From NCBI RefSeq assembly GCF_008000775.2, contig NZ_CP042905.2:270001-302000 (forward strand): DNA of 32,000 bases, read 5' to 3'. The stretch comes from Promethearchaeum syntrophicum. Lineage in GTDB: Archaea > Asgardarchaeota > Lokiarchaeia > Sigyniarchaeales > Promethearchaeaceae. The position numbers and the translations under genes are program-made. The notes below the pieces were generated by a model that had not been told where the DNA came from, ran no database searches, and saw only the letters and a program-made list of their open reading frames with translations. Numbering within the stretch: position 1 is the first letter of the stretch; every line of letters starts with the position of its first letter. Shown piece by piece: positions 4,608-32,000 of the stretch.

Positions 4608-4621
4608 CAAGATGATGACTT

Positions 4622-11528: not shown

Positions 11529-11545
11529 GATATCATCTCCTTTAA

Positions 11546-12772
11546 TTAAAAACGAACCTCCCACATCTTATCTTTGGATTGCCGAACTCCAAGGTAATCA
11601 TACAATTTTCCTCTATTATCCGTTATAGGTTTCATCTTTTTCGCCGCATATTCAATTTCATCTTTGGTAACATCTCGCCCACCTAATCCGACGATAAGAG
11701 ATCTAAGAACTACATTTAACCCAAAAAGCGCGCTTGCAACTGATTGGCCAACTGGAGGTAGAATTCCACTAAGATCATCATCTTTTTCAAGAATAATAAT
11801 TTTTTCAATTTTATTCTCTTCAATGATTTTTCTGAGTTTTTCAGCAGGAAACGGTCTCCATGTTCTTAACTTAATTAATCCTACATCTTTATTGTGTTCC
11901 ATCCAAGTTAGAATATTCCCACACATCGATCCCATTGTTAGAAACACTGTTTTACTAGAGCATTCTAAATTATATGTTTCAATCGAATGATAAGATCTCC
12001 CTGTCATTTTTTCAAATTCTTTGAAAGCATTATCAATTATGGGCAATACTTTATTCTTTTCTAATTCTAAAGCTAATCTTCCTTCTCCAAAATAATCAGG
12101 TGTAACAATTCCACCCCAAGTCCCTGTTTTTTCAGTATTAATATGGTGGCGTGGTTTTTTGGGAGTATATTTCAGGACATCCTCATCTGGAACTGCGAAG
12201 AATTTCTGCGCACTATGTGAAATTATAAACCCATCGTGAACAAATTGAGTTGGGAATAATGAATCTTCAGAAATTTTGGATGCAATTATTGAAGCATCAT
12301 ATGTTTCTTGAACATTTTCAGAAACAATCGTATTCCATCCCATCCCAGATAGTAATGTAAATTCCCATGAATTCCATATTGAAAGATTTGGAGAATTAAA
12401 TGCACGGGCTGATATCATCATTGTTAGCGGAACTCGCCATCCAGGGGCCATAGGTAAACATTCAGCCATTAACAATAACCCTTGAGATGCAGTAGCTATA
12501 AAAGTTCGCGCTCCAGCAGCACATGCAGCAGTACTAAACGCGCATGCCGCTAATTCAGATTCTACATTAACAAATGCCGCTTTCAACTTTCCATGGTTGA
12601 CAACATCAGATAAACCTTCCACAGATTGAGTTTGAGGCGTAATTGGAAATGCACAAATCACATCGGGATCAGTTTGACTAACGCCACCCGCAACAGCATA
12701 ATTACCTGTCATAGTTAATTCGACAGGTTCCTTGATTTCCTTGAAAAAAGGATTCATTGGTTGTACAGACAT
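11546..12772 (-). CDS. 2-oxoacid:ferredoxin oxidoreductase alpha subunit
   Basis: The N-terminus TGNYAVAGGVSQTDPDVICAFPITPQTQ, then ESELAA...GARTFIATASQGLLLM, and the C-terminal GLGGRD are typical of PorA/VorA. GGTGAT lies 8 nt upstream of the ATG. Confidence 0.9.
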   Translation of the reverse strand: MSVQPMNPFFKEIKEPVELTMTGNYAVAGGVSQTDPDVICAFPITPQTQSVEGLSDVVNHGKLKAAFVNVESELAACAFSTAACAAGARTFIATASQGLLLMAECLPMAPGWRVPLTMMISARAFNSPNLSIWNSWEFTLLSGMGWNTIVSENVQETYDASIIASKISEDSLFPTQFVHDGFIISHSAQKFFAVPDEDVLKYTPKKPRHHINTEKTGTWGGIVTPDYFGEGRLALELEKNKVLPIIDNAFKEFEKMTGRSYHSIETYNLECSSKTVFLTMGSMCGNILTWMEHNKDVGLIKLRTWRPFPAEKLRKIIEENKIEKIIILEKDDDLSGILPPVGQSVASALFGLNVVLRSLIVGLGGRDVTKDEIEYAAKKMKPITDNRGKLYDYLGVRQSKDKMWEVRF

Positions 12773-14948: not shown

Positions 14949-15932
14949 TTAAGTTTTTTCTTTTGTGAAATCGTAAATCGGGACCCCAAAAATATCCCAA
15001 ACCGGTTTTTGGTCAAAATTTACTTTTTGAATTGCAGTTGTAATAACTGGGTATTCTTTCATTAATTTTGCAAGTTCACTAATTACACTTTTACCTTGTG
15101 ATACTTGATGAATCAAATCTACACAATAATCATGAGGTGCCCCTAAGTATATTGCTTCAGTTAAAATGAGTTTTTGATATAGATCAAATGTTTGCTTTCT
15201 ATACTGGATAAAAAACTTATTTATGGTATCTTGGAATTTTGAAAAATCATCAGAATTTACTAATCCTTTATCATAACATGCATAAATCTGTTCGGAATAA
15301 TTATTTTCAAAAGCTTCCCCAATATCACTTGCAAAATCAAATAATGTTGGTTCCACTAGATGACTTAATCGCGAATTAACATTAGTCATCAAAGCAACAA
15401 AAATATGTTCTTTTTTACTGAATCTTACTTCGATTTCACCTGATTTTATTAATTGTACTCCAGATAACCAACCTATATTTTCAGCGAAGGAATTTATTGC
15501 ACTAAGCAATCCGGAAACTAAATTTTGATTAACTGGTGACTTTTCCATTTTTCCATGATAAGCTAAAAAGTGAAATAAGCATAAACCATTATTTGTGATA
15601 AAGTAAACCTCAGGAATTTTCAATGATCCTTTAAAAGAAAGAGGAGTAATTTGTCCCGTTTTAGATTTACTCCGAGAATCTTTATACTTATAATCAGGGA
15701 GAATATATTTTAAATCGATATTATTTTTAACTTGAGCTAAATAATGAAAATATAGGGAAAATTGAGAATAATTTAATGAAAATTCATTTTGAGTAAATCG
15801 AATTTCTTCTAATTTCTTATTTACTTCAACTGCAGAAATTGATAATGATTCAAAATTGTCATTTTTAATTTTCCATGATGTCACTGATTTTTTATTCAAA
15901 TCAAGATCCATGATGATAAAACTTTCATTCAT
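14949..15932 (-). CDS. hypothetical protein with a central Roadblock/longin-like domain, candidate small-GTPase partner
   Basis: The central segment is VYFITNNGLCLFHFLAYHG...NQNLVSGLLSAINSFAENIG...VQLIKSGEIEVRFSKKEHIFVALMTNVN. It shows the beta-beta-alpha-beta-beta-beta pattern and the sGllsAinsF helix typical of Roadblock/longin-type modules. The gene is divergent from the GTPase gene with a 64-nt spacer. Confidence 0.5.
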   Translation of the reverse strand: MNESFIIMDLDLNKKSVTSWKIKNDNFESLSISAVEVNKKLEEIRFTQNEFSLNYSQFSLYFHYLAQVKNNIDLKYILPDYKYKDSRSKSKTGQITPLSFKGSLKIPEVYFITNNGLCLFHFLAYHGKMEKSPVNQNLVSGLLSAINSFAENIGWLSGVQLIKSGEIEVRFSKKEHIFVALMTNVNSRLSHLVEPTLFDFASDIGEAFENNYSEQIYACYDKGLVNSDDFSKFQDTINKFFIQYRKQTFDLYQKLILTEAIYLGAPHDYCVDLIHQVSQGKSVISELAKLMKEYPVITTAIQKVNFDQKPVWDIFGVPIYDFTKEKT

Positions 15933-18141: not shown

Positions 18142-19950
18142 TTAAATTAAACTAAGTAATGATGGTTGTAATTTGGTTACTTTTTCCCAAATTTCAGGAG
18201 GAAGAATTTCCAACCATTCTTTTTTATTAATTGGTCTTTTCAAAAGTATCGCTTTTGCCCTTTTTTTTCCGATTCCATCAATGATTTCTAACTCTCGTTG
18301 GCTTAATTCATTTAATATGATTGGTGTTTTTAAACAATTTAAAGATCTGAATCCATGATCAACAACCATTAGATTAAATTTTATTTTTAAATCCAATTTT
18401 CTAGGGACAAAACATGTTATTGGATATGTTCCTGGTTGCCGCAATAAAGTGCCATTACCATCGATTTTTTCTGCATAAACATTTTTTAATTCCCGACCAA
18501 CTGGATAGATTTTTTGAAGCATAGGATGGTCAATTTCGTTTCTTATAGTATCTTTCCATTTATAATACTTAGAAGCAAATTTGTTCAAGTGATTTTTTAT
18601 CTTTTTATTTAATCTGGGATTAAATCCTGCTGGTATAAGAAATTTCCTTAGGTTAATTCTCCTTATCCAATAGTTTTTCTTTAGAATTTTGTGAAGAAAT
18701 TGATAATTAAGGTTTAAAGATTCTTGAGTCTCTCCTGGTAATCCCATTATAAAATTTAATCCTGGCAAAAAGGCAGGATTTCCATTTTTTCCAATAAATT
18801 TTCCATATTTATTAATTACTGATAACGCTTCAAGTATCTCATCAGCTGAAGCTTTTAAATTATTCATTGATATTACATTAGAATCCACTGATTCTATTCC
18901 AATTGCTGCCACATTCCCTTCGGTGCAATATTTAATAATGCTCCTTGTTATTTTTTCTGCTTCCTTGGGATATAATGCAAAATTTAATGCATTTACATTA
19001 TCTATATGAAGTGTTCTAATATCCGGACAGGAATTTCGTATTTTTGATAATAAACTTTCAACTGCTTCAGGATTGGGTTTCGGATATCTTTTATTCTCAT
19101 AAAGACCGTGATTAAATGCATAAAAATCTGTTTGATTTCCTAAACGAAAATGCCTAACTCCTTTATTATAAAGTGATTCTATCTCTTTTACTATAGAATC
19201 AATTTTTCGATGAGCTGTTGGACCTTTTTTTGGTTCAACACAAAATAAACACCCTCCATTGATATATCTGGGGCATCCTCTAAAGGTTTCGATTTCGCAA
19301 ATTAAATTACCCCCTTCAAATCTAGAAAAATTAGGATGATGAATAATTAATTCTGCTCCAATAACTGAAAAATCCAAAATATCTTCCATATTTTCACGTT
19401 TTAATTGCAGAATTTTTTCCATATTTGGATTATTGCCTATTTCTTCATAATTATAAAAAATATTTTCATAATTTTGAAGAAGAGTGGAAAGTACAATTTC
19501 CGAATCCCCTTTAACTATTAAATCCCACTTATTTTCAAGATTCTCCAGTCTTTCAATAGGTATGCTCGGTTTCCCCCCTTCTTCTCCAATTCCAAAAATA
19601 GTTGACGGCCCACAAATAATTTTAAAACTTTCTGAAAAGAAATTTGAGATATGCTTTATATCCGAAAATCGTAAGGGAGTTCCACTAAGATATTTTCCGG
19701 GTACAGATACTCCTGATATCAATATTATAATGTTATTCTCTCTTAACCGATTTAACCCAATTGAGGCTTTATTTTGATAATTATCTTTTAAGACTTTACG
19801 TATCTGATCTATTGTTATATAATCAATTTCCCATGAAGGCTTAATTTTTTTAATGGCTCCATAAATATAACGGGGTAATGGTGCTAAAAATGGTGGAACT
19901 CCTAAGCAACTTGGTTGATCGATATATCCATCGATTATTAACACCCTCAT
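18142..19950 (-). CDS. radical SAM enzyme with an N-terminal flavodoxin/B12-binding-like domain and a C-terminal helix-hairpin-helix motif
   Basis: Cluster motif FRGCPRYINGGCLFC. TIM-barrel-like blocks follow: RHFRLGNQTDF, LHIDNVN, GIESVD, GLPGET. The C-terminal ELEIIDGIGKKRAKAIL is an HhH motif. The track N-terminus (to 20181) overlaps the divergent gene. ATG at 19950 (MRVLIIDGY...) or 19977 is more plausible. Confidence 0.75.
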   Translation of the reverse strand: MRVLIIDGYIDQPSCLGVPPFLAPLPRYIYGAIKKIKPSWEIDYITIDQIRKVLKDNYQNKASIGLNRLRENNIIILISGVSVPGKYLSGTPLRFSDIKHISNFFSESFKIICGPSTIFGIGEEGGKPSIPIERLENLENKWDLIVKGDSEIVLSTLLQNYENIFYNYEEIGNNPNMEKILQLKRENMEDILDFSVIGAELIIHHPNFSRFEGGNLICEIETFRGCPRYINGGCLFCVEPKKGPTAHRKIDSIVKEIESLYNKGVRHFRLGNQTDFYAFNHGLYENKRYPKPNPEAVESLLSKIRNSCPDIRTLHIDNVNALNFALYPKEAEKITRSIIKYCTEGNVAAIGIESVDSNVISMNNLKASADEILEALSVINKYGKFIGKNGNPAFLPGLNFIMGLPGETQESLNLNYQFLHKILKKNYWIRRINLRKFLIPAGFNPRLNKKIKNHLNKFASKYYKWKDTIRNEIDHPMLQKIYPVGRELKNVYAEKIDGNGTLLRQPGTYPITCFVPRKLDLKIKFNLMVVDHGFRSLNCLKTPIILNELSQRELEIIDGIGKKRAKAILLKRPINKKEWLEILPPEIWEKVTKLQPSLLSLI

Positions 19951-20023
19951 TATTCTTTTTCTAATTAACACTTTCATTAATCTTTTTCTAAGAAATTTTA
20001 AGGATTGAATACATTTTTGACAT

Positions 20024-21139
20024 ATGGACAATAGAGTGAAACGGGCGATAATCGTTGGAATCGGAGGCCATGCACATGTTTGGAAGAAGGCTTTAGATGA
20101 ACATCCTGATTGGGAATTAGCAGCAATTGTCGACACCGACACCGATAAACTCGAACATGCACCTAATAGCTGGGGGATCAATAGAAAGGAAGCATTTACA
20201 AGTATCGAAGAAGCGATTCAATTTGGAAAAGGACCCCATGACTTAGCAATACTCGTTACCCCTACATACACACATCATGTTCTTGCAATGGAATCTCTTG
20301 AGGTAGGTTTAAATGTTATAAGTGAAAAAAACCTTGCTTCCAGCATTGATCAAGGTAGACAAATGGTTAAAGCTGCAAAGGCAAATCCACATTTGTGCAC
20401 CGCTGCAGGAACTCAAACAAGATATTTTCCTCAAAATTGGAGTTTAAAGAAATACTATCTCGAAAATAAAAAGACTTTAGGAAGAATTACATCATTAAAT
20501 TTCTCGTATTTATATAATTGGGGAAAAACTCGGCAAGGCTGGCGAAGGTGGCTTAGAGATTTATTTTTAGAAGATATGGCACCTCATCATTTTGATCTAA
20601 TGCGATACTTAACTGATATGGACATTGTTCAAATTCAAGGAGCCACAAATTTCAAACCCACTTTCTCATATTTCAAAGGGTCGTCTACTACCTTTGCAGT
20701 ATTTGCACTTTCAACTCCAGAAAATTATGAAAACCCTGATAACTGGATTTATGCAACATATAGAGGAGATTGGCAAAAAAAGGGAAAATTACAACATACT
20801 GTTGAATTAAATTATGAAGGTGGAGAATTAAATCTAATAGAACAAAAAAAAGAAAAAAAAATTGAAATCTCAATTTTTGATGATGCTGAAGGTTTCCAAT
20901 ATCATAATAAGCCTGTTCCAATAACATCTGATGTAGAATTCAATAAGAAAAATTATTCTTCAGAATTGTTCTTGCTAGAAGAAATGTCTATAGGAATTGA
21001 TTCCAAGGGTAAAATTCAACCAAAGACGAATTACAATGATGCTATTAAATCTTTCGCTGTTTCACGAGGGATAGTTGAGAGTTTTGAAACTGGGAAATCA
21101 GTATATCTTCCAAAATATTGGAAAAATTTACTTGGATAA
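20024..21139 (+). CDS. Gfo/Idh/MocA-family NAD(P)-dependent oxidoreductase
   Basis: N-terminal Rossmann motif AIIVGIGGHAHVW. TPTYTHHVLAMESLEVGLNVISEKNLA corresponds to the family TP...H......AL..GkhVl.EKP block. Confidence 0.75.
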   Translation: MDNRVKRAIIVGIGGHAHVWKKALDEHPDWELAAIVDTDTDKLEHAPNSWGINRKEAFTSIEEAIQFGKGPHDLAILVTPTYTHHVLAMESLEVGLNVISEKNLASSIDQGRQMVKAAKANPHLCTAAGTQTRYFPQNWSLKKYYLENKKTLGRITSLNFSYLYNWGKTRQGWRRWLRDLFLEDMAPHHFDLMRYLTDMDIVQIQGATNFKPTFSYFKGSSTTFAVFALSTPENYENPDNWIYATYRGDWQKKGKLQHTVELNYEGGELNLIEQKKEKKIEISIFDDAEGFQYHNKPVPITSDVEFNKKNYSSELFLLEEMSIGIDSKGKIQPKTNYNDAIKSFAVSRGIVESFETGKSVYLPKYWKNLLG

Positions 21140-21191: not shown

Positions 21192-22244
21192 CTATTCTTC
21201 ATCATTTGAAGAATCATCAATTGGAGAGTCATTATTTGAAGTATCGTTAATCCCAAGTTGGTTGATCATTTGCTTCTTTAATGTTGAAAGATCTCTTGAA
21301 AGTCCAAAAGTATCTGAAAAATTCTCAGTTGTCATCAATTCATAAGATCTTCCCTTTTTCATTGCACTAATAAACCCTCTATCCAATAAAAACTTAACAT
21401 GTTCATATGCTCCCGATCCCCGAATTTTTATTAATTTGGATTTTAGAATCGGTTGTTTTAAAGCAATAATTGTTAGAGTTTTCAAATGCCTGTCTGGTAT
21501 AAGCCCTCCAGTAGCAAATTTTTTAACATTAGGGGTATATTCTGGTTTAATTTGAAGGCTGAATTTATCTTGAATCTGGACAATCTCTAATGCAGTTGCA
21601 CGCATCAAATAATCCAACATTAACTCTTCTAAATTCTTTTCTAAATCTTTTTTCTTAATTTCTGTTTTTATATTAAGTTCTTCTATCGAGATAGGACGAC
21701 CCGCTACAAAAAGAGCACCCTCAATAATATTCTTCATTCGAGAGTTTTCATCAATTTCTTCTGAAACTAACTCTTCCGTTGATAATTCATCACTAACTGC
21801 GGGGGTTTCTAGTGCTTCTGGATTATCTTCATCTATAAATTCTTCGATAGATTCATGAGTTATCTCCTCTCCAGGAATATTATTATCTAATTCTTCATAA
21901 TTTTCTGGAGCTTCTTCTCGTTCTTCTTCCTTCTCTCCCTCTTCTTCTATTAATTCCTTTTCAGCAGGTAAACTCTCAATTTCTTTATCAATTTCTTCTA
22001 AATCAGCTAAAATTTCTTGTTCAATTACATCTTGATCTTTTTCAATATTTTCTTCTTTTGGTTCCGGTTCTTCAATCCTATCTATTTGATGTTCTTCAAT
22101 TGGGGCTTCATCTTCTTCTTCTGCTTCTTCATCTTGATCTAAATCGTCTGGTTCTTGCTGATCACTATTTTCTTCTTCAATTTCATCTAATTCTGGGATT
22201 TCATCATTAATTTCTTTGTTTAAATCATGTTCTTCTTCAAGCAT
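21192..22244 (-). CDS. scpB: ScpB (condensin accessory subunit) with a ~168-aa polyacidic N-terminal extension
   Basis: The ScpB core is IEGALFVAGRPISIEEL...LKTLTIIALKQPILKSKLIKIRG...LLDRGFI...GRSYELMTTENFSDTFGL. AAGGTGA lies 6 nt upstream of the ATG at 22244. The extension is about 50% D/E. Confidence 0.85.
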   Translation of the reverse strand: MLEEEHDLNKEINDEIPELDEIEEENSDQQEPDDLDQDEEAEEEDEAPIEEHQIDRIEEPEPKEENIEKDQDVIEQEILADLEEIDKEIESLPAEKELIEEEGEKEEEREEAPENYEELDNNIPGEEITHESIEEFIDEDNPEALETPAVSDELSTEELVSEEIDENSRMKNIIEGALFVAGRPISIEELNIKTEIKKKDLEKNLEELMLDYLMRATALEIVQIQDKFSLQIKPEYTPNVKKFATGGLIPDRHLKTLTIIALKQPILKSKLIKIRGSGAYEHVKFLLDRGFISAMKKGRSYELMTTENFSDTFGLSRDLSTLKKQMINQLGINDTSNNDSPIDDSSNDEE

Positions 22245-22269: not shown

Positions 22270-23328
22270 TTAACTTAAATTGATGCTAGTTTTATCGACA
22301 AGAGTTACCTCAATTGGGCTCCGCATCGTTCTTTGAGCCATTGTTACTTTATTTAAAGATGCTAAAAATAACAACTCTTCAAAAAGTTGAATGTAATTTA
22401 CCTTTTTCTTCAGTATTGCTTGATCTTCTTGATAAATCATTTTTTTTAGTAATGCAACGGAAAAAGTTTGGCCATCTTTATTCATGCGAATGATTTCCTT
22501 TATTTTTTGATGCGTTTTTTGAAGTCGTTCTTCAATAGTTAATTCGCTCCCAGTAATATGCTTCAAAATTTCAGCAGGTAGTTTTCCTTTTCCCCGTATC
22601 TTAATTTGTTTTTCTCGTTTAGCAAGACTGCGTTCACGCCTAATTCTTAATTTTTCGCGTTTTTGCATAGTTTCAATAATTGCTCTCCTCATTGCACCAA
22701 ACAATTCACTCGAGGTTGCAATTTTTCGACTTTCTCGTAAAGGCTGTGCTATGGCTCTAGGAATTTCTCTTCGTAAACGCGCGCGTGCCTCTTCTCTTTG
22801 AATATGTTCCTCTTCTGCTATCACACTTGTGATTTTCTTATGATAAAATTTCGCAGATGAATAGATCGCTAGCCCAGATATACGAAAATCGATTAATTCT
22901 TCAGTTAACATCTTGTCAATAAATTCTTCTATTAATTTGCTTATATCGAATTTCGCCAGATCTACATTACTCGCCAGATCAGGATCCAATAAAGATCGCC
23001 ATGGTTCCTCAATCCACCATTTTCCTGATTTTTCAAGCACTTCATTTTCATTAATCTCTGAATTATCCTCAATTTCTGCCCCGACTGTAATGACTTCCTT
23101 AATAACAGGTTCTACTTCTTCTTTTTTGACTTTTTTCTTTGATTTTTTCTTATCTACTTTTGGAGATTCTTTCTTTTGATCTGATTTTGGCTTCTCAATT
23201 TTACCAGTTAAACTTGTTTGCTTTAATTTTGTTGTCTTTGCTTTTCTAGTCTTTTTTTTACTAGATTTCTTTGAGGTTGTAGGTTTTTTAGTTGTTTTTT
23301 TTTTCTTTTTTGTTGTTTTCTTTGCCAT
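22270..23328 (-). CDS. scpA: ScpA (kleisin) with a polybasic lysine-rich N-terminal extension
   Basis: The archaeal ScpA-like N-terminal block is LDPDLASNVDLAKFDISKLIEEFIDKM...ISGLAIYSSAKFYHKK. The C-terminal winged-helix-like block is FEELLFLASLNKVTMAQ. The gene sits between smc and scpB, with AGGAGAGG upstream of the ATG. The first ~75 aa are K/T/S-rich (MAKKTTKKKKKTTKKPTTSKKSSKKK...). Confidence 0.75.
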   Translation of the reverse strand: MAKKTTKKKKKTTKKPTTSKKSSKKKTRKAKTTKLKQTSLTGKIEKPKSDQKKESPKVDKKKSKKKVKKEEVEPVIKEVITVGAEIEDNSEINENEVLEKSGKWWIEEPWRSLLDPDLASNVDLAKFDISKLIEEFIDKMLTEELIDFRISGLAIYSSAKFYHKKITSVIAEEEHIQREEARARLRREIPRAIAQPLRESRKIATSSELFGAMRRAIIETMQKREKLRIRRERSLAKREKQIKIRGKGKLPAEILKHITGSELTIEERLQKTHQKIKEIIRMNKDGQTFSVALLKKMIYQEDQAILKKKVNYIQLFEELLFLASLNKVTMAQRTMRSPIEVTLVDKTSINLS

Positions 23329-23345: not shown

Positions 23346-26300
23346 CTATTCATCAAGTACATCAGTGACTATTGGGGAATCTAAATCTGCATCATCAATT
23401 CCCTCTATTTTAGATCCAAAATCATCGCGATCCTTTTCTTCCTCCAGATCCACATTAAAAATATCGGTAATTCCATCATTCATCGCAACTCCATATATTA
23501 TTTCGGAATTTGTAATATTCTCCTCTCGGTGTGAAATCACCAAAAATTGACTCTGAGACGCATATTCCTTAATAACCATCGACACACGATACACATTTGG
23601 GCCGTCTAAAGCCGCATCTATTTCATCCATGATGTAAAAAGGCGCTGGGTAGAAATTCTGGACTGCGAAAATAAAACTTAAGGCCACCAGTGTTTTTTCA
23701 CCACCTGATAAGATAGTCAAAGATGAAATTTTCTTTCCTCTCGGACGCGCTTCGATGGTAATCCCCCCTTCAAATGGATGAGCCGGATTTTCTAAAATCA
23801 TTTTCGCCGATCCTCCTGGACTAAGCTTTTGGAACACAGCACTAAAAACTCGATTAATCTCATGATAAGCTTTCATGAAGTTTCGCGTTTTTTCCAATTC
23901 AATCCTTTCTATACTATCCAATATTGCTTTTCTTTCACGTTGTAACGTTTGTCTACGCATATCTATTTCATCCCATCTTTCTCTAACTTGTTCGAACTCC
24001 TCGATAGATTTCAGGTTGACTGGTTCTAATGCTGTGCGTTCAGTCGTTACTTTGTTGATTGAATTAGTGAGTTGGGTTTCATCTAAATCATCAGAAACAG
24101 GAGGCAATGTTCCGAATTCTTTTGATTTTTCAAAATATTCATCGATTTTTTCCTCAACATAGATTTTTTCATTTTCTAAATTATTAAATTTCGTGGTATT
24201 CATCGATAAATCTGTGTTAAGTTCCCCTAGTTCATCCCTTAGACTTTTTTGTTTTTCCCAAGACTCGTTAATTTGTGTATTTAATTCTGTTATTGCGTTT
24301 GATTTTTCGGTTCTTTCTTCTTCAAATTTTCCAATTTCTTCAGTTATATATTTAATGCTATCTTCAAAATCAATAATACCATCCTGCAAATCAATGACTT
24401 CACTTTTCATATTCTCAATTTCAATAGCACGATCCTTCATTTGTTGTTGCTTATCACGTTTTTTGTCCAATGCATTCTTTTCATTGGTGAGATCTGAAAG
24501 TGTTCCCCTTTGTTCATTCTCTTTTTGTTCGAGATCTTTGCGTTCTGATTGAATTCCTTCAATTTCAGTATTCTTTACATTGATTTGCTCATCAAATTTC
24601 TCGATATCCGCCTCGAAAGTGGTGATTTTTTCTTTATCTTCATTAATTGTCTCAGTAAATTCTTCATTTTCTAATTTTAGGTTTTCAATATCAGAAATGA
24701 GCTTTTGCACATTTTCTAAATCTTTGAGTTTTGAAATGCTCTCGTTAAATTTCTCATTTTCCCCTTCAATTTGCGCTTCAAGATCGGTTCTAATATCCTC
24801 TGCCGATTCCCTATCCTGTTTTATTTTGCTTATTTTCTCATTTACAGATTTTGTTTCTTCTTGAGCTTTTGTATTACTTTGATTCAGTTCTTCAATAGAT
24901 TTCTTCTTATTCTTAATATTTTCGCGCAATTTTTCTTGATCTTTTGTTGCACTCTCAATATCCTCAAGAAATCGTTTAACTGTGCCTAATGAATTCAGGT
25001 CAGAAATAATACCATTTAATTCCTCTGATTTCGAGTCAATAAGTGATTGTAAATCTTTACTAGATTTCCAAAAATCATCGGAAAATTGTTTAATCTCTGT
25101 AAATTTTGTATTGATATCCTCAATTTCTTTTTTCAGAGTTTCAATTTTGGTGGCTTTTTCCTCTATTTCTATATTACCGTTCTTAATTTTTTCTGTATTG
25201 TCTTCAAAATTTTGAGTTAAATCTTTAAGATCTCTTTTTAAAGTGGCATTTCGATCTTCCTTTTGCTCTAAATTGCTCTCAATCTTTGTTAGTTTATTTG
25301 AAATCTCTAATAATTGGTTTTGTTCTCTTTGAATGCTTTCATTTAACGAATCTAATAACCGATATTGCTCTGATGTATCGGAAACTCCTAACGCCTGAAT
25401 TGCAATTCTAATAGAAGCAAAAACCTCTGTAAAATCTAATACAAAATTATCAAAATTTGATGTAGACTCCACCAATGCTTCTTCACTTGCATCGCGTACG
25501 ACCTCATTTAATTGCTGGATGGGTTGATCCGAATTTTCAATTAAGAAATTTAGTGTAGTGACCACTTGCTCCAATTCAATTTTTATTTCTTCGGCTTCCT
25601 TTGTAGATATTTCTTCAATAGTCCCTAACATGTCGGTAATATCCATCACGAATGATCTTAAAACCGATTCTGATTCGTCAATAGCCACCTGAGTGGCATT
25701 TTGAATATCACTTTTGATATTCCCCGCAGATCGGTCAATATTCTGGATTAATTCATGAACCGTTGTCATTACACTTTCTAACTCATGTGACGATTCCGCC
25801 TGTTCATCCGCCTTTTTATCAATTTTTTCTTGGAGATCTTCCCTATCTGTATTTAATTTCTCCAATTTTTTATTTATATTTTTAGCTTGCTCACTCAGTT
25901 TTTCTTTTTCTATCGTTAAAACATTAATTTCATCCGTTAAATTTGTGTTATGAAGGGTTTTTTCATTTTTCTCGCGCTCGCTTTTCTTTACTTCGCCTTG
26001 AGCATTTTTCAAATCATATTTTACATTTGAGATCCGCTTTTCTAAATCCGCCACTTCATTTTCTAATGATCGTCGTTTTATTTCAAAAGTTTCCTTCTTA
26101 TTTTGCGAATTTTTTTGCTCATCATTTGCCTTCTTCAATTTATTCTTGGCTTCCGCTAATTCGTTATTGAGCAGCGCCTCTTTACTTTTTAAGCCTTTGA
26201 CTTGATCTTCAACCGGGTTCCCTTTTGTGAGTCTATCATATTCTTTTTGAAATCCTTCTTTCTTCTCTTCCAGATCGTTTATTTGTCCATCAAACAGATT

Positions 26301-27827
26301 GATTTCTGCACTCGCTGAAGATACTGAAGCCTGAATATCAGCTTGTCTTTGCATTGCTTTATCTCTGTCAACTTCTGCTTTTTTAATTTCCTCATCCAAT
26401 TCTTTTTGCTGATTTTTTTGCTCTTCAATCTTATTCTTCAAGTCATTTATTGCCCCGCTGATTTCATCCTTCTCTGCTTGGGCTGCCTTAATAGCCTCGT
26501 CAATTGACTCATCTTCTTTCTTAAGTTTTGCCAACTCTTTTTCCAATTTCGTCAATTTTTTGGTATTTTTCGTAATATTTTTGTTGGACAGATTGATTTC
26601 AGTTGATAATCCTTTTATATCTTGCTTTACTTTCGAAATTTCTTTATTTATTCCGGTTTTCTGCTCATTGATCTCGGCTATTTGGATTTCTCGCTTTTTC
26701 TGCTCTTGAATTGTTTCATTAATGATTTCAGAAGTTTCATCCATCCGCTGCTCCACAACATCTATCTCCCCTGAAGACAATGCTATTAAATCATCGAATG
26801 TTTGCCCCTCTTCCAATTTCTCTTGGAGATTTTGCAATTTTTCAATATTGGCTTCCAGTCGCTTTAAATTCTCCTTTGTTGCTTCCAAGGTCGCCTCTTT
26901 TGCCGACAAATCGGATCTTTGCTGGCTGATATCCTCCTCAATTTTGGCCTTTTCCCCTTCTACCCCGGCTAAATCTTCTTTAATATTATTTAACAGTAAA
27001 TTTTCGGTTTCAATCTTCTCTTTCTGCCGATCTATTCGCGATTTCAACTCGTCCATCACTAATTGGGTTGATTCGATATCAGCTCCGATTTCTTCCTCTC
27101 GCTGGCGTAGATGAAAGATTTTCAGCGCAATCAGCTGCGCATTATATTGTTTGATTAAATTATCCAACTGTTTCCATTGGAGTGCATCATTTTTCTCCTT
27201 TTCGACCTTCTTTAACTGCTGTGACACTTCTTTGAAAATTGCCTCGAATTGCCCCAAATCTGTATCTGCTTTCTCCAGCTCTTTGAGGGTCCGCGCCTTC
27301 ATCTGATCATACTTTTCTAGTCCAATAAGGGTTTCAATGAAAATCCGCCGATTCACCGTATTCATATGAGTCAGTTCGACAATTTTTCCTTGGAGAATAA
27401 ATTGATTTGAGCCATCTGGATCAATATTTGCCTGCGCCAGTGCATTTAGCAGGATTTCGCGGGTAGTTTTTTTTCCTTGAATCTTATATCCTGATTGTCC
27501 CTTCGCTTTGACCCACCGTGTTATGTCATATTCATCGCTGTCTTCTGGAAACTCTCGATTCCTATTGTCGAACGTTAATGTTACCTCTGCTCTGGTTGCT
27601 GCTTTAGCTGTTTTTGAACCCGCAAATATGAGATCTGTTAAGGCGCGCGCGCGCATTGTTTTTTTCGACATACGCCCCAGTGCAAAACAGAGAGCGTCTA
27701 TGATGTTGCTTTTACCGTTTCCGTTTGGACCGATGATACATGTAAATCCTTTAGCAAGTGAGACAGAGACAGTGCGATTTCCGAAGCTTTTAAAACCAGT
27801 CATGGTAACGCGTTTAATGAAAGTCAT
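23346..27827 (-). CDS. smc: SMC chromosome-condensation ATPase, unusually long (1493 aa)
   Basis: The N-terminal head is MTGFKSFGNRTV...IIGPNGNGKSNIIDALCFALG (Walker A) with Q-loop QGK. The C-terminal head is LSGGEKTLVALSFIFAV (signature) and FYIMDEIDAALD (Walker B/D-loop). Between them lie about 1050 aa of coiled-coil-type sequence. The gene is followed directly by scpA and scpB. Confidence 0.92.
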   Translation of the reverse strand: MTFIKRVTMTGFKSFGNRTVSVSLAKGFTCIIGPNGNGKSNIIDALCFALGRMSKKTMRARALTDLIFAGSKTAKAATRAEVTLTFDNRNREFPEDSDEYDITRWVKAKGQSGYKIQGKKTTREILLNALAQANIDPDGSNQFILQGKIVELTHMNTVNRRIFIETLIGLEKYDQMKARTLKELEKADTDLGQFEAIFKEVSQQLKKVEKEKNDALQWKQLDNLIKQYNAQLIALKIFHLRQREEEIGADIESTQLVMDELKSRIDRQKEKIETENLLLNNIKEDLAGVEGEKAKIEEDISQQRSDLSAKEATLEATKENLKRLEANIEKLQNLQEKLEEGQTFDDLIALSSGEIDVVEQRMDETSEIINETIQEQKKREIQIAEINEQKTGINKEISKVKQDIKGLSTEINLSNKNITKNTKKLTKLEKELAKLKKEDESIDEAIKAAQAEKDEISGAINDLKNKIEEQKNQQKELDEEIKKAEVDRDKAMQRQADIQASVSSASAEINLFDGQINDLEEKKEGFQKEYDRLTKGNPVEDQVKGLKSKEALLNNELAEAKNKLKKANDEQKNSQNKKETFEIKRRSLENEVADLEKRISNVKYDLKNAQGEVKKSEREKNEKTLHNTNLTDEINVLTIEKEKLSEQAKNINKKLEKLNTDREDLQEKIDKKADEQAESSHELESVMTTVHELIQNIDRSAGNIKSDIQNATQVAIDESESVLRSFVMDITDMLGTIEEISTKEAEEIKIELEQVVTTLNFLIENSDQPIQQLNEVVRDASEEALVESTSNFDNFVLDFTEVFASIRIAIQALGVSDTSEQYRLLDSLNESIQREQNQLLEISNKLTKIESNLEQKEDRNATLKRDLKDLTQNFEDNTEKIKNGNIEIEEKATKIETLKKEIEDINTKFTEIKQFSDDFWKSSKDLQSLIDSKSEELNGIISDLNSLGTVKRFLEDIESATKDQEKLRENIKNKKKSIEELNQSNTKAQEETKSVNEKISKIKQDRESAEDIRTDLEAQIEGENEKFNESISKLKDLENVQKLISDIENLKLENEEFTETINEDKEKITTFEADIEKFDEQINVKNTEIEGIQSERKDLEQKENEQRGTLSDLTNEKNALDKKRDKQQQMKDRAIEIENMKSEVIDLQDGIIDFEDSIKYITEEIGKFEEERTEKSNAITELNTQINESWEKQKSLRDELGELNTDLSMNTTKFNNLENEKIYVEEKIDEYFEKSKEFGTLPPVSDDLDETQLTNSINKVTTERTALEPVNLKSIEEFEQVRERWDEIDMRRQTLQRERKAILDSIERIELEKTRNFMKAYHEINRVFSAVFQKLSPGGSAKMILENPAHPFEGGITIEARPRGKKISSLTILSGGEKTLVALSFIFAVQNFYPAPFYIMDEIDAALDGPNVYRVSMVIKEYASQSQFLVISHREENITNSEIIYGVAMNDGITDIFNVDLEEEKDRDDFGSKIEGIDDADLDSPIVTDVLDE

Positions 27828-28077
27828 GTGGGTGGGCTCTTTTTATATTAGGTAGGGGGATTTTTTGGTGCTTATAAGGGGAAAAAGATTTCTAATGCTA
27901 TAGACCTTATGCTTATATAAGAATTAATTGTCGTATTTAAAAGCATTAACTCTTTGCGAGAAATTTATCATAAGAAAATGATCGGTATTTGGTGCCGACT
28001 TCAATTTTCTGGGTTATTTTAAAGGATGGGAAGAAGTCGATATATAGTCAAAAGGAAAAGGAATGCTATTAAAAAAT

Positions 28078-28818
28078 TTAGCGGATATAGAATGCAACCT
28101 TTCCATTAGTGTCGATTTTAATTTGTGTTTTCGGCGAGATATCGAAGTCATAGAACTCTTCGGCGATTTTTGGGAATTTTTTGAAGGTGTCGTGGATAAA
28201 TCTTCTGCATGTGGTGATTCTGGATTGTTTGTGGGCATCGGGGGTTTGGGTTAAGATTTCAGTCATCATCGAGGATAGGTCGGCATGTTTTTGGATTTGT
28301 TTGGTGATATATTGTTTTACATTGGAAATCTTGTTTTGAAATTCGAGTAATTTATTGAATTGAAGGAAATTTTGCACAATTCTTTTCTGTTTTCTGATTG
28401 TGTCAGAAGAGTATTTTCTATTTTCAGTGAGATAAGTCTTAAACTCGTTTAATTGGGAATTTTTAGCGTTTTCTATGCTGTTCAAGTCGGGATTCTGTAT
28501 TTTAAGGAATTTATAATAGTTTTTAAGAGCGAGATTTGCTTTTGATATCAATTCTTTAGATTTACTTTGTCTAACGAATTCATTATCGATGAATTTTTCA
28601 ATAAGTATGTGGTCATTTTGGAGGATAGGTTGTTGGTGTGAATCAGAATACCATTTTGAAAAGTCAGGGTTATGAAATCTTAAATATCTTCGAATCTGGT
28701 TAGAATAATTAGTATAAACTTTTTTAGATTTCAAGTTTTTTTTCAAATATTTTTCATATTGTTGATATTGTTTATATGAAATTTTAGAGATTTCTTGTGT
28801 TTTTGGGGAATTTTTCAT
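28078..28818 (-). CDS. hypothetical protein (246 aa) built from about four helical repeats resembling integrase N-terminal SAM-like (core-binding) domains, with no recombinase catalytic domain
   Basis: Repeated pattern F/Y..YL......S..T......I..FL.F: YEKYLKKNLKSKKVYTNYSNQIRRYLRF, IEKFIDNEF...ANLALKNYYKFL, FKTYLTENRKYSSDTIRKQKRIVQNFLQF, VKQYITKQ...TTCRRFIHDTF. The start overlaps the upstream stop (ATGA). The domain call rests on pattern only. Confidence 0.55.
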   Translation of the reverse strand: MKNSPKTQEISKISYKQYQQYEKYLKKNLKSKKVYTNYSNQIRRYLRFHNPDFSKWYSDSHQQPILQNDHILIEKFIDNEFVRQSKSKELISKANLALKNYYKFLKIQNPDLNSIENAKNSQLNEFKTYLTENRKYSSDTIRKQKRIVQNFLQFNKLLEFQNKISNVKQYITKQIQKHADLSSMMTEILTQTPDAHKQSRITTCRRFIHDTFKKFPKIAEEFYDFDISPKTQIKIDTNGKVAFYIR

Positions 28819-29072
28819 GAAGTAATCATAAAATTATAAAATTCCTTACAACTTTCACATTGCATTGGTAATTCGTTTGTTTTATTGTTATATCCGTTCT
28901 CAAGAGTGGTTTTATTTAAATATTCGAAAACTTTGGTTTTTGGAACAAATTTAACCACATTTTTTTCAAACCTTACCAAATTGGCCACATTTCTCTTTCC
29001 ATAAATTTCTTCTAAAAATCTGATATATTCCATTCCTTGGTTTTCTGATAGTGAATTTTGCAATTTAATCAC
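28815..29072 (-). CDS. small hypothetical protein (72-85 aa)
   Basis: ORF track entry. The start is either GTG at 29072 (6 nt after the upstream stop) or ATG at 29033 (MEYIRFLEE..., AAGGA upstream). The stop overlaps the next start. A C-terminal CESC pair is the only motif. Confidence 0.45.
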   Translation of the reverse strand: MIKLQNSLSENQGMEYIRFLEEIYGKRNVANLVRFEKNVVKFVPKTKVFEYLNKTTLENGYNNKTNELPMQCESCKEFYNFMITS

Positions 29073-29078
29073 CTTGTT

Positions 29079-30071
29079 TTAAAAAAATAATTGGACATAT
29101 TCATTTGTTTTTTGATAAATATGGGGATACGGAACTTGATAGCCTCTTTTCTTAGCTTGTCCATTGATCCATGCGGAGAGTTCATTGATTAAATTATTTT
29201 TATTGGAGGTTTTAAGTCGAAAATTGTCAAATCGAGAACAAATTTCTTCATTTGAGAGAAAATCAAATCCAAAATCAAAATAATTGGGTAGGTTCTTCTT
29301 ATTAAATTGAGAAAATGCTTTTTGTATTTTTTCTTCGGGTTCTTTAATCATATTAAAGAGTGCTTTTCCATCAAGGTCAGGCAGTTTTAACCATCCTTTC
29401 ATTGTCCAAAAGAGTAAGACATGAAAACTATCATCGTAAAGTCGTTGAATTTCTCTTTCATTATTTAAATTCCTGAGGTTAAAATATTCTTTTGCCATTT
29501 TAGCTCCGCTAGCTTTAATAAGCTGAAAAAATCGTTTCACAGGGGTAATATGTCGTGAAATAGGACCCGCTCCATGAATATTCATCTTAAACGGTCCAGG
29601 TTCTCCTGAAAAAACTAAATTAATCATGGTGAAATCCATATAAGATCTGATCATTTCGATTGTTGCTTGATCTGCTTTTGCTCCCATAAGGTATTGTTTC
29701 AAGTAATTACCACTTAAATACGAATCTTTTTTTGCTTTTATCAACGGTTTCCCGTAATCAAGTAATGGTTCGATCCATCCGCGTGCATACCAATAAGTAA
29801 TCAAATATTTTACCTTATCAAAAATTTCTTTATGCCTCCCTCGAATAACGTCTATTTGGAGTAATGCAAGAGTCACTTCAAGGGCAGCCATATGCCTCAT
29901 CAAATTAATAGCATCGCAAACGTTTTTTATGGGGTGTTTCTCACCCATTATAATTTTTTCTTCTCCCAAAGGGAGATCGAGCTTATTAATTTCATCTTGA
30001 GCAATCTCCAATAAGGCTGGAGCGGGTTTACCCCCCTCTAGAACTCGTTGAATATAATCTTCTTGAGTCAT
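29079..30071 (-). CDS. hypothetical protein (330 aa), paralog A of a tandem pair (shared ~230-aa N-terminal module, unique ~100-aa C-terminus)
   Basis: GAGGTGA lies 5 nt upstream of the ATG. The N-terminal 233 aa are clearly homologous to the upstream gene (e.g. IAQDEINKLDLPLG, MGEKHPIKN, HMAALEVTLALLQIDVIR, YLSGNYLKQYLMGAKADQ, MKGWLK). I recognise no known domain. Confidence 0.75.
   Translation of the reverse strand: MTQEDYIQRVLEGGKPAPALLEIAQDEINKLDLPLGEEKIIMGEKHPIKNVCDAINLMRHMAALEVTLALLQIDVIRGRHKEIFDKVKYLITYWYARGWIEPLLDYGKPLIKAKKDSYLSGNYLKQYLMGAKADQATIEMIRSYMDFTMINLVFSGEPGPFKMNIHGAGPISRHITPVKRFFQLIKASGAKMAKEYFNLRNLNNEREIQRLYDDSFHVLLFWTMKGWLKLPDLDGKALFNMIKEPEEKIQKAFSQFNKKNLPNYFDFGFDFLSNEEICSRFDNFRLKTSNKNNLINELSAWINGQAKKRGYQVPYPHIYQKTNEYVQLFF
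29373..30071 (-). repeat. tandem duplication unit, copy A (N-terminal module of the 330-aa gene), homologous to 30727..31413
   Basis: Nucleotide-level similarity is visible by eye over about 690 nt at an offset of about 1342 nt. It includes an identical run of about 56 nt, CTCGAATAACGTCTATTTGGAGTAATGCAAGAGTCACTTCAAGGGCAGCCATATGC, at about 29841-29896 and about 31185-31240. Confidence 0.85.
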
Positions 30072-30099
30072 AATTTCACCTCAATCAATAATTAGGATT

Positions 30100-31413
30100 T
30101 TATCTTGATAATTTGCTCATCTCAAACATTGTTTTCATAATTCCAGAGCCAGATGATTTTAAAAATTCCCAAAATCCTTTTTTCACTCGTTTACTCATAG
30201 AGGAAGTATATACAAAAGAAATTTTTCCTTCTTTTGGTCCTATAACAGGTATCCAACGATAATTTTCATTAATCCAATTTCCATCTCTGGTTAACCCAAA
30301 AGCAGCCATTATGTTTTCACTTATTTTCTGATTTATCTCCCACTCATTAGCTTTTTTGAATAATATTCTGGCAAGTAATGCAAAATTGAAACCATCCCGA
30401 TTTTGTCCATTTCGACTCATTTCCGCGTATCCTTTCCACCAAGCTTTCATAAATACGTCGTATTCTCCAATGGTTAGTGTAGGAAAATCAAAATCTTTCG
30501 ATTTACTCATTTCTAAATATACTTTTTTGATTTTAGGATTATCTACAACAATTATAGTAGTTGTCCGGTGTTTTTTATTTCCAAATTGTTTATCTCGGTT
30601 TGCTATAAATTCAAAAAGTATTTTTGGATTTTTTTCTTTGGAGAATAAAAACTCTAAGATTCTTGTAAAACCGCCGTCTCGAAATTCAAGGATTTGAGAC
30701 GTAATTGGGGATGGATCGTTTTCCTCAAGATCTGGTATCTTTAACCATCCTTTCATTATCCAAAAGAGTAAAATATGAAAGCAATCATCATTAAGTTGCT
30801 GGATTTCTCTTTGGTTATTTAAATTTTTGAGATTAAAGCATTCATTTGCCATTTTAGTTCCACTAGTATTGAGAAGTTGAAAAAATCGTTTCATAAGGGG
30901 ATCATTCCTTGAAATTGGACCGACTCCATTAGCATGAGTAAGTCCAGATTCTTTTGAAAAAAACTGAACCATGGTTAAATCCATGTATGATTGAATCATT
31001 TTGAGAGTTTTTTGATCTGCTTTAGCTCCCATAAGGTATTGTTTTAAGTAATTACCACTTAAATACGAATCTCCTTTCGTTTTTATCAAGGGTTTCCCGT
31101 AAGCCGGTAATGGTTCGATCCATCTACGTGCATACCAATATGGAATCAAATATTTTACATCTTCAAAAATTTTTTTATGCCTCACTCGAATAACGTCTAT
31201 TTGGAGTAATGCAAGAGTCACTTCAAGGGCAGCCATATGCCCCATCAAATAAATGGCATCACAAATGTTTTTTATGGGGTGTTTCTCCCCCATTATAATT
31301 GGTTCTCCTCCCAAAGGGAGATCAAGTTTATTAATTTCATCTTGAGCAATCTTCAATATGGTTGGGTCGGGCTTAGCTACCCCTGCTAAAACTTGTTTAA
31401 GATATTCTTCCAT
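30100..31413 (-). CDS. hypothetical protein (437 aa), paralog B of a tandem pair (shared N-terminal module, unique ~208-aa C-terminus)
   Basis: GGAGGAG lies about 9 nt upstream of the ATG. Its N-terminal 229 aa are homologous to the downstream gene, and the C-terminal region is unrelated by eye. No known domain recognised. Confidence 0.75.
   Translation of the reverse strand: MEEYLKQVLAGVAKPDPTILKIAQDEINKLDLPLGGEPIIMGEKHPIKNICDAIYLMGHMAALEVTLALLQIDVIRVRHKKIFEDVKYLIPYWYARRWIEPLPAYGKPLIKTKGDSYLSGNYLKQYLMGAKADQKTLKMIQSYMDLTMVQFFSKESGLTHANGVGPISRNDPLMKRFFQLLNTSGTKMANECFNLKNLNNQREIQQLNDDCFHILLFWIMKGWLKIPDLEENDPSPITSQILEFRDGGFTRILEFLFSKEKNPKILFEFIANRDKQFGNKKHRTTTIIVVDNPKIKKVYLEMSKSKDFDFPTLTIGEYDVFMKAWWKGYAEMSRNGQNRDGFNFALLARILFKKANEWEINQKISENIMAAFGLTRDGNWINENYRWIPVIGPKEGKISFVYTSSMSKRVKKGFWEFLKSSGSGIMKTMFEMSKLSR
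30727..31413 (-). repeat. tandem duplication unit, copy B (N-terminal module of the 437-aa gene)
   Basis: See copy A. Similarity ends abruptly after the MKGWLK(L/I)PDL codons. Confidence 0.85.
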
Positions 31414-31532
31414 TAGACTTTCTCCTCCAAATTCTTTAACTTATGGATTGAAATATTAGATTGAGCAAAAATTACCCCAACTAGAGCAATAAACGCTAAT
31501 ATCATTATATGATTTTGTTTTTTGTTTTTCAT
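31413..31532 (-). CDS. possible 39-aa membrane/signal-like peptide, translationally coupled to the 437-aa gene
   Basis: Not in the ORF track. The minus strand reads ATG AAA AAC AAA AAA CAA..., giving MKNKKQNHIMILAFIALVGVIFAQSNISIHKLKNLEEKV. Its TAA shares an A with the downstream ATG (TAATG at 31415-31411). It has one hydrophobic helix after a basic N-terminus. Confidence 0.35.
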   Translation of the reverse strand: MKNKKQNHIMILAFIALVGVIFAQSNISIHKLKNLEEKV

Positions 31533-31777
31533 TTTTGATCACTTTTGTATTTTTGTTAAAAAAATATCTGTTAAACTTCTATAAAAAAATTTAGAAATTT
31601 TGACTTTCATTTTTTTTCTGGTGTTTTTGAATTCCTTAACTATTCCGATATTAAATAGATTCATCATTTGTTTTGAGTTACGACCTTTTTTTCATTTGAC
31701 ATAGTAATTTCTCCATGAAAAATAAGGTTGAAATCAGTAAAAACAAAAAACAAAAAATAATAAAAAGTGAAAAAAAT

Positions 31778-32000
31778 ATGGGTTTATTTTACGATATACT
31801 ACTTTTACAATTCTTCGGATTGATAACGGTGAAAATATGCAATTTTGTCAAAGATCGGTTCGATCTAATCGATCAAATTTGTGATATTTTCTTAAAAACT
31901 GGTATTTATATTCGGGAATTGTGTCATTTTGCAGTATCCAAACTCTTGTTGGTTCCGATAGACTGGTCTGATTTAAATTTTAATAACAAGAAAGGGCGGA
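31778..32000 (+). CDS. possible 5-prime part of a hypothetical gene running off the window end
   Basis: ATG at 31778 opens a frame that stays open to nt 32000 (MGLFYDILLLQFFGLITVKICNFVKDRFDLIDQICDIF...). There is no motif and no clear RBS. Confidence 0.2.
   Translation, partial: MGLFYDILLLQFFGLITVKICNFVKDRFDLIDQICDIFLKTGIYIRELCHFAVSKLLLVPIDWSDLNFNNKKGR

Follow-up and report, generated by a model that had tools for sequence, protein, structure and literature searches.

Do five tightly packed genes without known relatives form a functional module, or do they only look like one? The question is raised by a block of open reading frames (ORFs) upstream of the smc gene of Promethearchaeum syntrophicum. 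The window, that is, the whole stretch of DNA that was analysed, comprises 32,000 nucleotides (contig NZ_CP042905.2, positions 270,001 to 302,000), and all coordinates below refer to it unless a contig is named. An earlier note had described the block (28078-31532, minus strand) as a coupled operon of orphan genes, and had suggested a conflict system or the cargo of a mobile element. We found that the five-gene block is a young, lineage-specific local arrangement and not a conserved functional system. Its two large genes are paralogs, with a similarity far beyond chance. They share an N-terminal module of about 230 amino acids (aa), hereafter the N-module, which is a genuine domain restricted to Lokiarchaeia/Promethearchaeota. 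It is absent from Pfam, NCBIfam and PDB and appears undescribed.

Gene order upstream of smc

All five minus-strand ORFs are present in the order described. They are listed below from 5' to 3', together with their domains, the rearrangement breakpoint and smc.

31413-31532, minus strand: 39-aa ORF (ORF list).
30100-31413, minus strand: 437-aa ORF, P0001 (ORF list).
30718..31413, minus strand: N-module of the 437-aa paralog, residues 1-232 (paralog alignment and profile search).
30100..30717, minus strand: unique 205-aa C-terminal region of the 437-aa protein, without homologs.
29079-30071, minus strand: 330-aa ORF, P0002 (ORF list).
29364..30071, minus strand: N-module of the 330-aa paralog, residues 1-236 (paralog alignment, profile search and structure prediction).
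29079..29363, minus strand: C-terminal domain (C-domain) of the 330-aa paralog, about 90 aa, a separable cassette (profile search and structure prediction).
28815-29072, minus strand: 85-aa ORF with a GTG start, or 72 aa from the first ATG (ORF list).
28846..28850: rearrangement breakpoint (blastn and MAFFT against the related contig L006).
28078-28818, minus strand: 246-aa ORF, the SAM-like-domain gene (ORF list).
23346-27827, minus strand: smc, 1493 aa (NCBIfam SMC_prok_A, E 9e-179).

The reported junctions were also found in the sequence. The 39- and 437-aa ORFs are joined by TAATG with a one-base overlap, the 28-nt spacer between the 437- and 330-aa ORFs contains GAGGTGA 4 nt ahead of the ATG, and ATGA links the 85- and 246-aa ORFs. 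The 6-nt spacer upstream of the 85-aa ORF holds solely with the GTG start. The genes are co-directional and tightly packed, and Shine-Dalgarno-like motifs (GAGGTGA and GGAGGAG) occur in the block. The 246-aa gene and smc are separated by a 250-nt spacer with a TATA-like box. A scan for bacterial promoters and terminators gave the same counts as in shuffled sequences, archaeal promoters being outside its models.

The N-module family

The 437- and 330-aa proteins share 168 of 232 aligned residues (BLASTP, 72% identity, E 2e-117). The similarity stops abruptly at ...WLK(I/L)PDL(E/D), and BLASTP detected nothing significant beyond it, so that the constant module and the unrelated C-termini of the earlier note are borne out. 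At the DNA level the repeats are 80-87% identical and end at 29365 and 30719.

A word-indexed search of 5.8 billion proteins returned the two window proteins and a single relative, P0003. An exhaustive HMMER profile search of 1.84 billion cluster representatives yielded 21 proteins at E <= 1e-3: 16 with the N-module (both window proteins counted) and five with the C-domain only. All named members belong to Lokiarchaeia/Promethearchaeota (Ca. Harpocratesius repetitus, and metagenome-assembled genomes, or MAGs, of Lokiarchaeota and Promethearchaeota), and the sole match in the genome collection is from a MAG named Promethearchaeum sp. The N-module is conserved at 19-30% identity across Lokiarchaeia.

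Most members consist of the N-module alone (200-260 aa), including relatives at about 50-56% identity. The close relatives P0007, P0027, P0028 and L009 are of this kind, the last of them being a gene added by a narrower alignment in the metagenome scan. The other architectures are N-module plus C-domain, N-module plus the unique 205-aa tail, C-domain alone, and transmembrane segments plus C-domain. Fusions to leucine-rich repeats (LRRs) were found twice: P0016 has LRRs, the N-module and a tail, and in P0022 the N-module is followed by LRRs. A survey for other C-termini, proposed in the earlier note, thus finds that in relatives the constant N-module is followed by nothing, by the C-domain of about 90 aa, or by LRRs.

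None of the 437-, 330-, 85- and 39-aa products is matched by an entry of Pfam, NCBIfam, PADLOC or PHROGs, and their description as orphans stands. No recurring weak Pfam match appeared when the 21 family members were scanned one by one. The N-module matches no known housekeeping enzyme family, there is no significant sequence-profile match to it in PDB, and literature searches turned up no paper on the family.

The N-module is internally duplicated. Its two halves align over 86 columns (hhalign, probability 94%, E 1.2e-7), and each half of about 110 aa contains L.G.KP....L, a helix, a beta-hairpin and two long helices ending with (Y/F)W(Y/T)(A/M)K.W(L/I)..P. An AlphaFold2 (AF2) model of the 330-aa protein, based on a 21-sequence alignment, has a mean predicted local distance difference test score (pLDDT) of 87.1 and a predicted template modelling score of 0.70. 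In this model the N-module forms two repeats (short helix, helix, beta-hairpin, two long helices) and the C-domain forms a helical bundle. The N-module is reproduced in a second model, that of the 437-aa protein, with pLDDT mostly 83-96. A Foldseek search with the 330-aa model gave best E-values of 0.72 in PDB and 0.35 in BFVD, with TM-scores <= 0.26. Conserved, internally duplicated and confidently folded, the N-module is clearly an established domain rather than a de novo ORF.

The invariant columns of the family alignment are W93, G163, G165, W218, K221 and W223, and Y92, W98, G129 and A189 are nearly invariant. By residue type, invariance is confined to W, Y, G, K and A. The alignment contains no conserved constellation of acidic, His, Cys or Ser residues suggestive of catalysis. 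The same holds for the products of the block in general: as had been noted from the sequence alone, no catalytic motif was found, either in the library scans or among the conserved columns.

The C-terminal regions

The C-domain of the 330-aa protein (helical bundle, about 90 aa) carries the motif FDFGF..LSNEEI ... EFVQLFF. It occurs alone in P0015 and P0019, and behind N-terminal transmembrane segments in P0020, P0021 and P0024. AF2 models it with pLDDT 83-98 over residues 261-330. The C-domain profile has no significant PDB match, the best being the anti-sigma factor NepR (E 0.034).

A free-standing 90-aa C-domain gene (P0015, contig L018, 283-555) is 78% identical at the DNA level to the window, and the identity is confined to 29069-29354. 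The match extends from the domain boundary to 10 nt beyond the stop codon, and abuts position 29365, where the similarity of the paralogs ends. Therefore the 330-aa gene is composite, its N-module and C-domain cassette meeting at the domain boundary.

The C-terminal 205 aa of the 437-aa protein have no homolog in the word-indexed, profile, PDB or IMG/VR searches. With pLDDT 32-51 over this region the AF2 model is unusable. Neither C-terminus matches any library family or PDB entry, and no recognisable toxin was found among them. A cryptic toxin fold in the C-terminus of the 437-aa protein is conceivable, given the unusable model.

The join upstream of smc

An ortholog of the 246-aa protein, P0005 (295 aa, 74% identity), is encoded on two contigs from JGI, L006 (the longer one) and L007. 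Of the block genes and smc, both contigs have only the SAM-like gene and smc. The relevant features are as follows.

L006 4848-5735 and L007 311-1198: P0005 gene, 295 aa, directly upstream of smc in both contigs.
L006 407-4462, minus strand: NACHT-LRR (STAND-type) gene, 1351 aa, divergent, on the other side of the P0005 gene.

The 437-, 330-, 85- and 39-aa genes are all absent from L006, and the NACHT-LRR gene of L006 has no homolog anywhere in the window. Comparison with close relatives, which the earlier note had proposed, thus shows the block to be a lineage-specific difference beside smc.

Window 28846-23362 aligns with L006 4955-10449 at 83.6% DNA identity over 5.5 kb (blastn). The homology starts at codon 37 of the 295-aa gene (window 28846, L006 4955). 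Upstream of this codon nothing is homologous to L006: in the window the first 36 codons and the upstream region have been replaced. The MAFFT alignment in the ancestral frame shows what happened to the next codons.

L006: GGA ATT CTT CAA TTT TAT GAA TTT CTT TCC AAA AAC TCC = G I L Q F Y E F L S K N S
Window: GGA ATT TTA TAA TTT TAT GAT TAC TTC ATG AAA AAT TCC = G I L * F Y D Y F M K N S

In the window Gln40 has become a stop codon and Ser46 has become the present ATG. Within P0005, residues 1-50 align with residues 105-165 at a score of 67, compared to 23.7±4.8 for shuffled sequences. The part missing from the window is thus a true repeat, and therefore the long form is ancestral and the window gene is truncated at its 5' end.

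The 85-aa ORF occupies the 222-nt segment bounded by the homology breakpoints 29069 and 28846. Its 3' end runs over the vestigial 5' codons of the SAM-like gene, which it reads in a different frame. The 222 nt, which make up most of the ORF, match nothing. Since the ATGA junction sits exactly at the join, and the new ATG overlaps the stop codon of the 85-aa ORF, the apparent coupling of the 85- and 246-aa ORFs is a by-product of the rearrangement. One candidate origin of the 85-aa ORF, a diverged first repeat of the ancestral SAM-like protein, was rejected: its Smith-Waterman score against the N-terminus of P0005 was no better than in shuffles (p 0.24). The ORF is also unrelated to genes found downstream of family relatives.

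The synonymous distance dS between the N-modules of the paralogs is 0.39, compared to 1.03 for SMC between the window and L006. Therefore the two organisms had already separated when the duplication, or the last gene conversion, took place.

The history that emerges is as follows. The two large genes are tandem duplicates of the N-module, and in the window copies recombination at the exact domain boundary has added different C-terminal pieces. One of these is the helical cassette of about 90 aa, which elsewhere is encoded by a free gene or forms the cytoplasmic end of small membrane-anchored proteins; the second is the 205-aa sequence without relatives. A segment with the 39-aa ORF, both paralogs and the 85-aa ORF became joined to codon 37 of the SAM-like gene. 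The join removed the first repeat of the SAM-like gene together with its own upstream region, and the new ATG overlapping the 85-aa stop now starts the 246-aa product. We are fairly confident of this account of recent tandem duplication, domain shuffling and rearrangement against a truncated SAM-like gene, and of the structural description of the N-module.

Co-occurrence of the genes

In 13 independent related loci, a tblastn search with all family proteins found one family member per locus within ±10 kb. In these regions there are no 85-aa, 39-aa or SAM-like companions, and no two of the five genes occur together. P0003, the ortholog of the 330-aa protein (59% identity, same C-domain), stands alone on its contig (L001/L002): the DNA upstream is non-coding for about 200-270 nt, and the genes that follow downstream are unrelated. 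Thus the operon is not universally conserved in a fixed core context. The proposal of a coherent five-gene module fails on several counts: the 246-aa gene belongs with smc, the 330-aa gene has a solitary ortholog, a relative encodes the C-domain separately, and there is no co-occurrence in the 13 loci.

The genomic contexts of the family loci all differ and have no recurring neighbour partner. Genes next to remote members encode an aminotransferase, enzymes of the tricarboxylic acid cycle, a peptidase and RtcB, a nitroreductase and an ABC ATPase. One remote member lies near a small GTPase gene and a PIN-domain gene with an 80-aa partner ORF.

Alternative explanations

One possibility is that the block is a conflict or defence module, with the paralogs as a diversifying sensor/effector or toxin/immunity-like pair and the small ORFs as accessory or immunity genes. 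A constant N-terminus with variable C-termini has been confirmed, the locus is an indel between close relatives, and its ratio of nonsynonymous to synonymous divergence (dN/dS), 0.3-0.5, is well above that of SMC (0.05). Some members are fused to LRRs, the equivalent position in the relative is flanked by the NACHT-LRR gene, and one member adjoins the PIN-domain gene with its 80-aa partner ORF. However, PADLOC-DB v2 gave 0 families at E <= 1 for all five products, and no toxin, nuclease, NTPase domain or conserved catalytic residues were found. In particular, Pfam and NCBIfam detect no NACHT or NB-ARC NTPase domain in the 437- and 330-aa proteins. Most members are single-copy proteins with the N-module only, encoded amid metabolic and housekeeping genes without a recurring partner; no copies were found in viruses or plasmids; and the small ORFs have no homologs anywhere. 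The suggestion of a conflict system therefore has no positive evidence (no PADLOC match, relatives amid housekeeping genes), and we consider it improbable.

Among known systems, the block resembles polymorphic toxins in its constant N-module, abruptly different C-termini, tandem paralogs and recombination at the domain boundary. However, it has no recognisable toxin, secretion or trafficking domain and no recurring immunity gene, and most members lack a C-terminal extension. The LRR fusions of P0016 and P0022 and the NACHT-LRR neighbour in the locus of the relative are reminiscent of the LRR and NLR-like (STAND) proteins of Asgard archaea, whereas the window proteins have neither LRRs nor an NTPase, and the N-module is unrelated to known effector and NTPase domains in the libraries searched. 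The narrow range, small size, recent tandem duplication and variable context of the family, as well as the many orphan ORFs in the window, are typical of ORFan families, but the core of the N-module is conserved at 19-30%, internally duplicated and confidently folded.

Alternatively, the block could be the cargo of a mobile element or provirus inserted in the 5' end of the SAM-like gene, with one end at about 28846 and the other beyond the window. The sharp homology breakpoint within a gene, with the loss of 36 codons, the absence of the block from the relative, and the orphan status of all its genes agree with this. However, the visible 3.2 kb contain no catalytic integrase, transposase, viral hallmark, tRNA or terminal repeats, and the GC content is like that of the surroundings. 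More widely, region 27700-32000 has no catalytic integrase, transposase, viral hallmark, tRNA or terminal direct or inverted repeats, although the segment continues past 32000, and no meaningful flanking repeats were found near the paralog block. The products of the block have no useful PHROG matches, no relatives of the family were found in IMG/VR or in phage and plasmid collections, and the members elsewhere are chromosomal singletons. Thus the cargo hypothesis, too, has no positive evidence: up to position 32000 no mobility genes, tRNA, terminal repeats, or viral or plasmid matches were found. We consider it unlikely.

The coding status of the ORFs bears on whether the block is decaying or non-functional DNA, composed of pseudogenised duplicates and chance ORFs. 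The two N-modules differ with a dN/dS of 0.36. Comparison with the respective orthologs gives 0.29 for the 330-aa gene and 0.26 for the 246-aa gene, and the value for SMC is 0.054. Both large genes, including the C-terminal part of the 437-aa gene, and the 85-aa ORF have coding-like in-frame codon usage. The 85-aa frame is open in 1e-4 of shuffles of like composition. The 39-aa frame is open by chance in 1.9% of shuffles, and its codon test is ambiguous. No homolog of the 39-aa ORF was found, and nothing corresponding to it lies ahead of the 330-type ortholog in L001/L002 or at any of the loci retrieved. Its product would have a basic N-terminus, a hydrophobic stretch of 15 residues and a short polar tail, and might represent either a small membrane peptide or what is left of a signal peptide. 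Of the transmembrane peptide described earlier, the ORF and the hydrophobic stretch are real, but an orphaned signal peptide would look just the same, and the status of the gene is putative.

Decay would explain why the C-terminus of the 437-aa protein and the 85- and 39-aa ORFs have no homologs, why AF2 cannot fold this C-terminus, and why the 246-aa gene is truncated; however, with dN/dS below 0.4 for the N-modules and the 246-aa gene, long open frames that are improbable in DNA of about 30% GC, coding-like codon usage and a confidently predicted fold, it is very hard to maintain. A genuine five-gene operon tied to chromosome biology, in which the SAM-like and N-module proteins would act with SMC-ScpAB, is equally far-fetched: the co-directional tight packing, the Shine-Dalgarno-like motifs, the overlapping stop and start codons and the conservation of the SAM-like gene beside smc are set against a relative that has the SAM-like gene and smc without the other genes, the 250-nt spacer with its TATA-like box, and components that are never together elsewhere.

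Possible function of the N-module

The N-module family may act as a soluble, non-enzymatic adaptor in protein-protein interactions. This is suggested by the lack of a conserved polar or catalytic set, the pseudo-dimeric helical scaffold, and the repeated fusion to LRRs or to a shared helical domain. In such an adaptor the N-module would provide the constant platform, with partner or location determined by whatever is appended to it. The tandem pair may heterodimerise via the N-modules. This functional assignment is tentative, and we would not be surprised if it were wrong. For the duplication, shuffling and rearrangement account and the adaptor function taken together, we put the chances slightly above even.

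Several points weigh against the preferred explanation. The dN/dS of 0.3-0.5 (0.05 in SMC), the indel polymorphism, the LRR fusions and the variable C-termini would also fit a conflict family. The strongly conserved Gly-rich hairpin HG.G..S with the G.K.AK that follows it, which is the only candidate for a ligand site in the N-module, might bind a ligand or take part in catalysis. The Foldseek comparison was confined to PDB and BFVD. The adaptor function is drawn from the lack of catalytic residues and from the fusion partners, and thus this prediction is rather weak. Because the segment ends outside the window, past position 32000, the comparison does not distinguish insertion from inversion or translocation. 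Finally, the comparison rests on a single relative lineage, L006/L007.

It is also conceivable that the N-module is a new superfamily or fold specific to Lokiarchaeia, and a constant platform, for signalling or as effector, in an LRR-linked recognition network that is innate-immunity-like or senses partners. The tandem pair could then be a freshly diversified heterodimeric couple of sensor and effector, one arm of which would dock membrane-anchored proteins via the C-domain. No feature of the locus suggests a system of a new kind.

The SAM-like gene and smc

The last gene of the block had been likened to the DNA-binding domains of integrases, and this resemblance is supported by the ortholog. 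The 246-aa protein scores below threshold with Pfam Phage_int_SAM_1 (PF02899; 20.2 bits, E 7.6e-4), and P0005 passes the gathering threshold (27.8 vs 22.3 bits, E 3e-6, profile positions 2-83 of 83). Weak NCBIfam matches of the 246-aa protein to XerA/XerC cover the N-terminal ~60 positions of the models only. The N-terminal SAM-like domain of tyrosine recombinases of the Xer type is repeated within the 246- and 295-aa proteins. However, unlike these recombinases, the 246-aa protein consists solely of repeated helical domains of the core-binding type. The catalytic domain Phage_integrase (PF00589, R-H-R-Y) was not found in it at E <= 1 in Pfam, and therefore the protein is not a recombinase. 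A profile of the SAM-like protein produced nothing significant in PDB. Three sequences of the SAM-like-only protein are known, all from one genus-level lineage.

The 246-aa gene, which contains only repeated integrase-type core-binding domains, is part of the conserved smc neighbourhood and lies outside the variable block. The conserved local layout is [SAM-like-domain-only protein]-smc-(kleisin)-scpB, with the last two genes located in the window as follows.

22270-23328, minus strand: ORF in the kleisin (ScpA) position, 352 aa, between smc and scpB.
21192-22244: scpB (Pfam ScpB match).

The 352-aa ORF in the kleisin position has no Pfam match at E <= 1, SMC_ScpA included. SMC itself is 1493 aa long both in the window and in L006 (5984-10465), about 300 residues beyond the 1165-position model SMC_prok_A, which it matches in five separate stretches. 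The spacer upstream of smc includes a 39-nt stretch (27911-27949) with the TATA-like TTATATAAG. A copy of this stretch with 92% identity lies downstream of the NACHT-LRR gene (L006 97-135) and is inverted. The stretch may represent a small repeated element, either regulatory or mobile.

In Bacillus subtilis, XerD has a recombination-independent role at XDS sites. By analogy, the SAM-like-repeat protein encoded upstream of smc might bind DNA at specific sites and serve to load or unload archaeal SMC. This SMC-loader role is independent of the LRR-linked network of the N-module, and we give these possibilities a low probability.

Other features of the window

The GC content of the window is about 30%, and it contains no tRNA or Rfam features. 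Other genes encode a major facilitator superfamily transporter, a 2-oxoacid:ferredoxin oxidoreductase, a formiminotransferase-cyclodeaminase and a radical SAM protein, in addition to smc and scpB. ORFs without a Pfam match at E <= 1e-5 lie at 2256-7066 (plus strand), 7384-9029 (minus), 10425-11564 (minus) and 14949-15932 (minus), and the window ORFs without a Pfam match include two of 783 and 814 aa. Since several other large ORFs are without a Pfam match, missing annotation is common in this genome and not peculiar to the locus.

The 679-aa radical-SAM ORF (TTG start, 18142-20181, minus strand) and the divergent 371-aa ORF of a GFO/IDH/MocA oxidoreductase (20024-21139, plus strand) overlap by 158 nt at their 5' ends. 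The start of the radical-SAM gene is probably further downstream than listed.

Implications

The locus shows that a tidy-looking "operon" can arise by recent rearrangement. Tight packing and overlapping stop and start codons in one genome are no evidence for a functional module. The SAM-like-only protein beside smc may offer a small lead on how archaeal SMC is targeted to DNA.

Among cultured organisms, Lokiarchaeia stand closest to eukaryotes. No better models of the archaeal ancestor of eukaryotes are available than the Asgard archaea of the Promethearchaeum/Lokiarchaeum group, in which about one gene in two lacks an annotation. The N-module family is now defined by its boundaries, internal duplication, motifs, predicted fold, domain partners and taxonomic limits. 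If it is indeed an LRR-linked adaptor or effector, it would be a lineage-specific addition to Asgard signalling or immunity.

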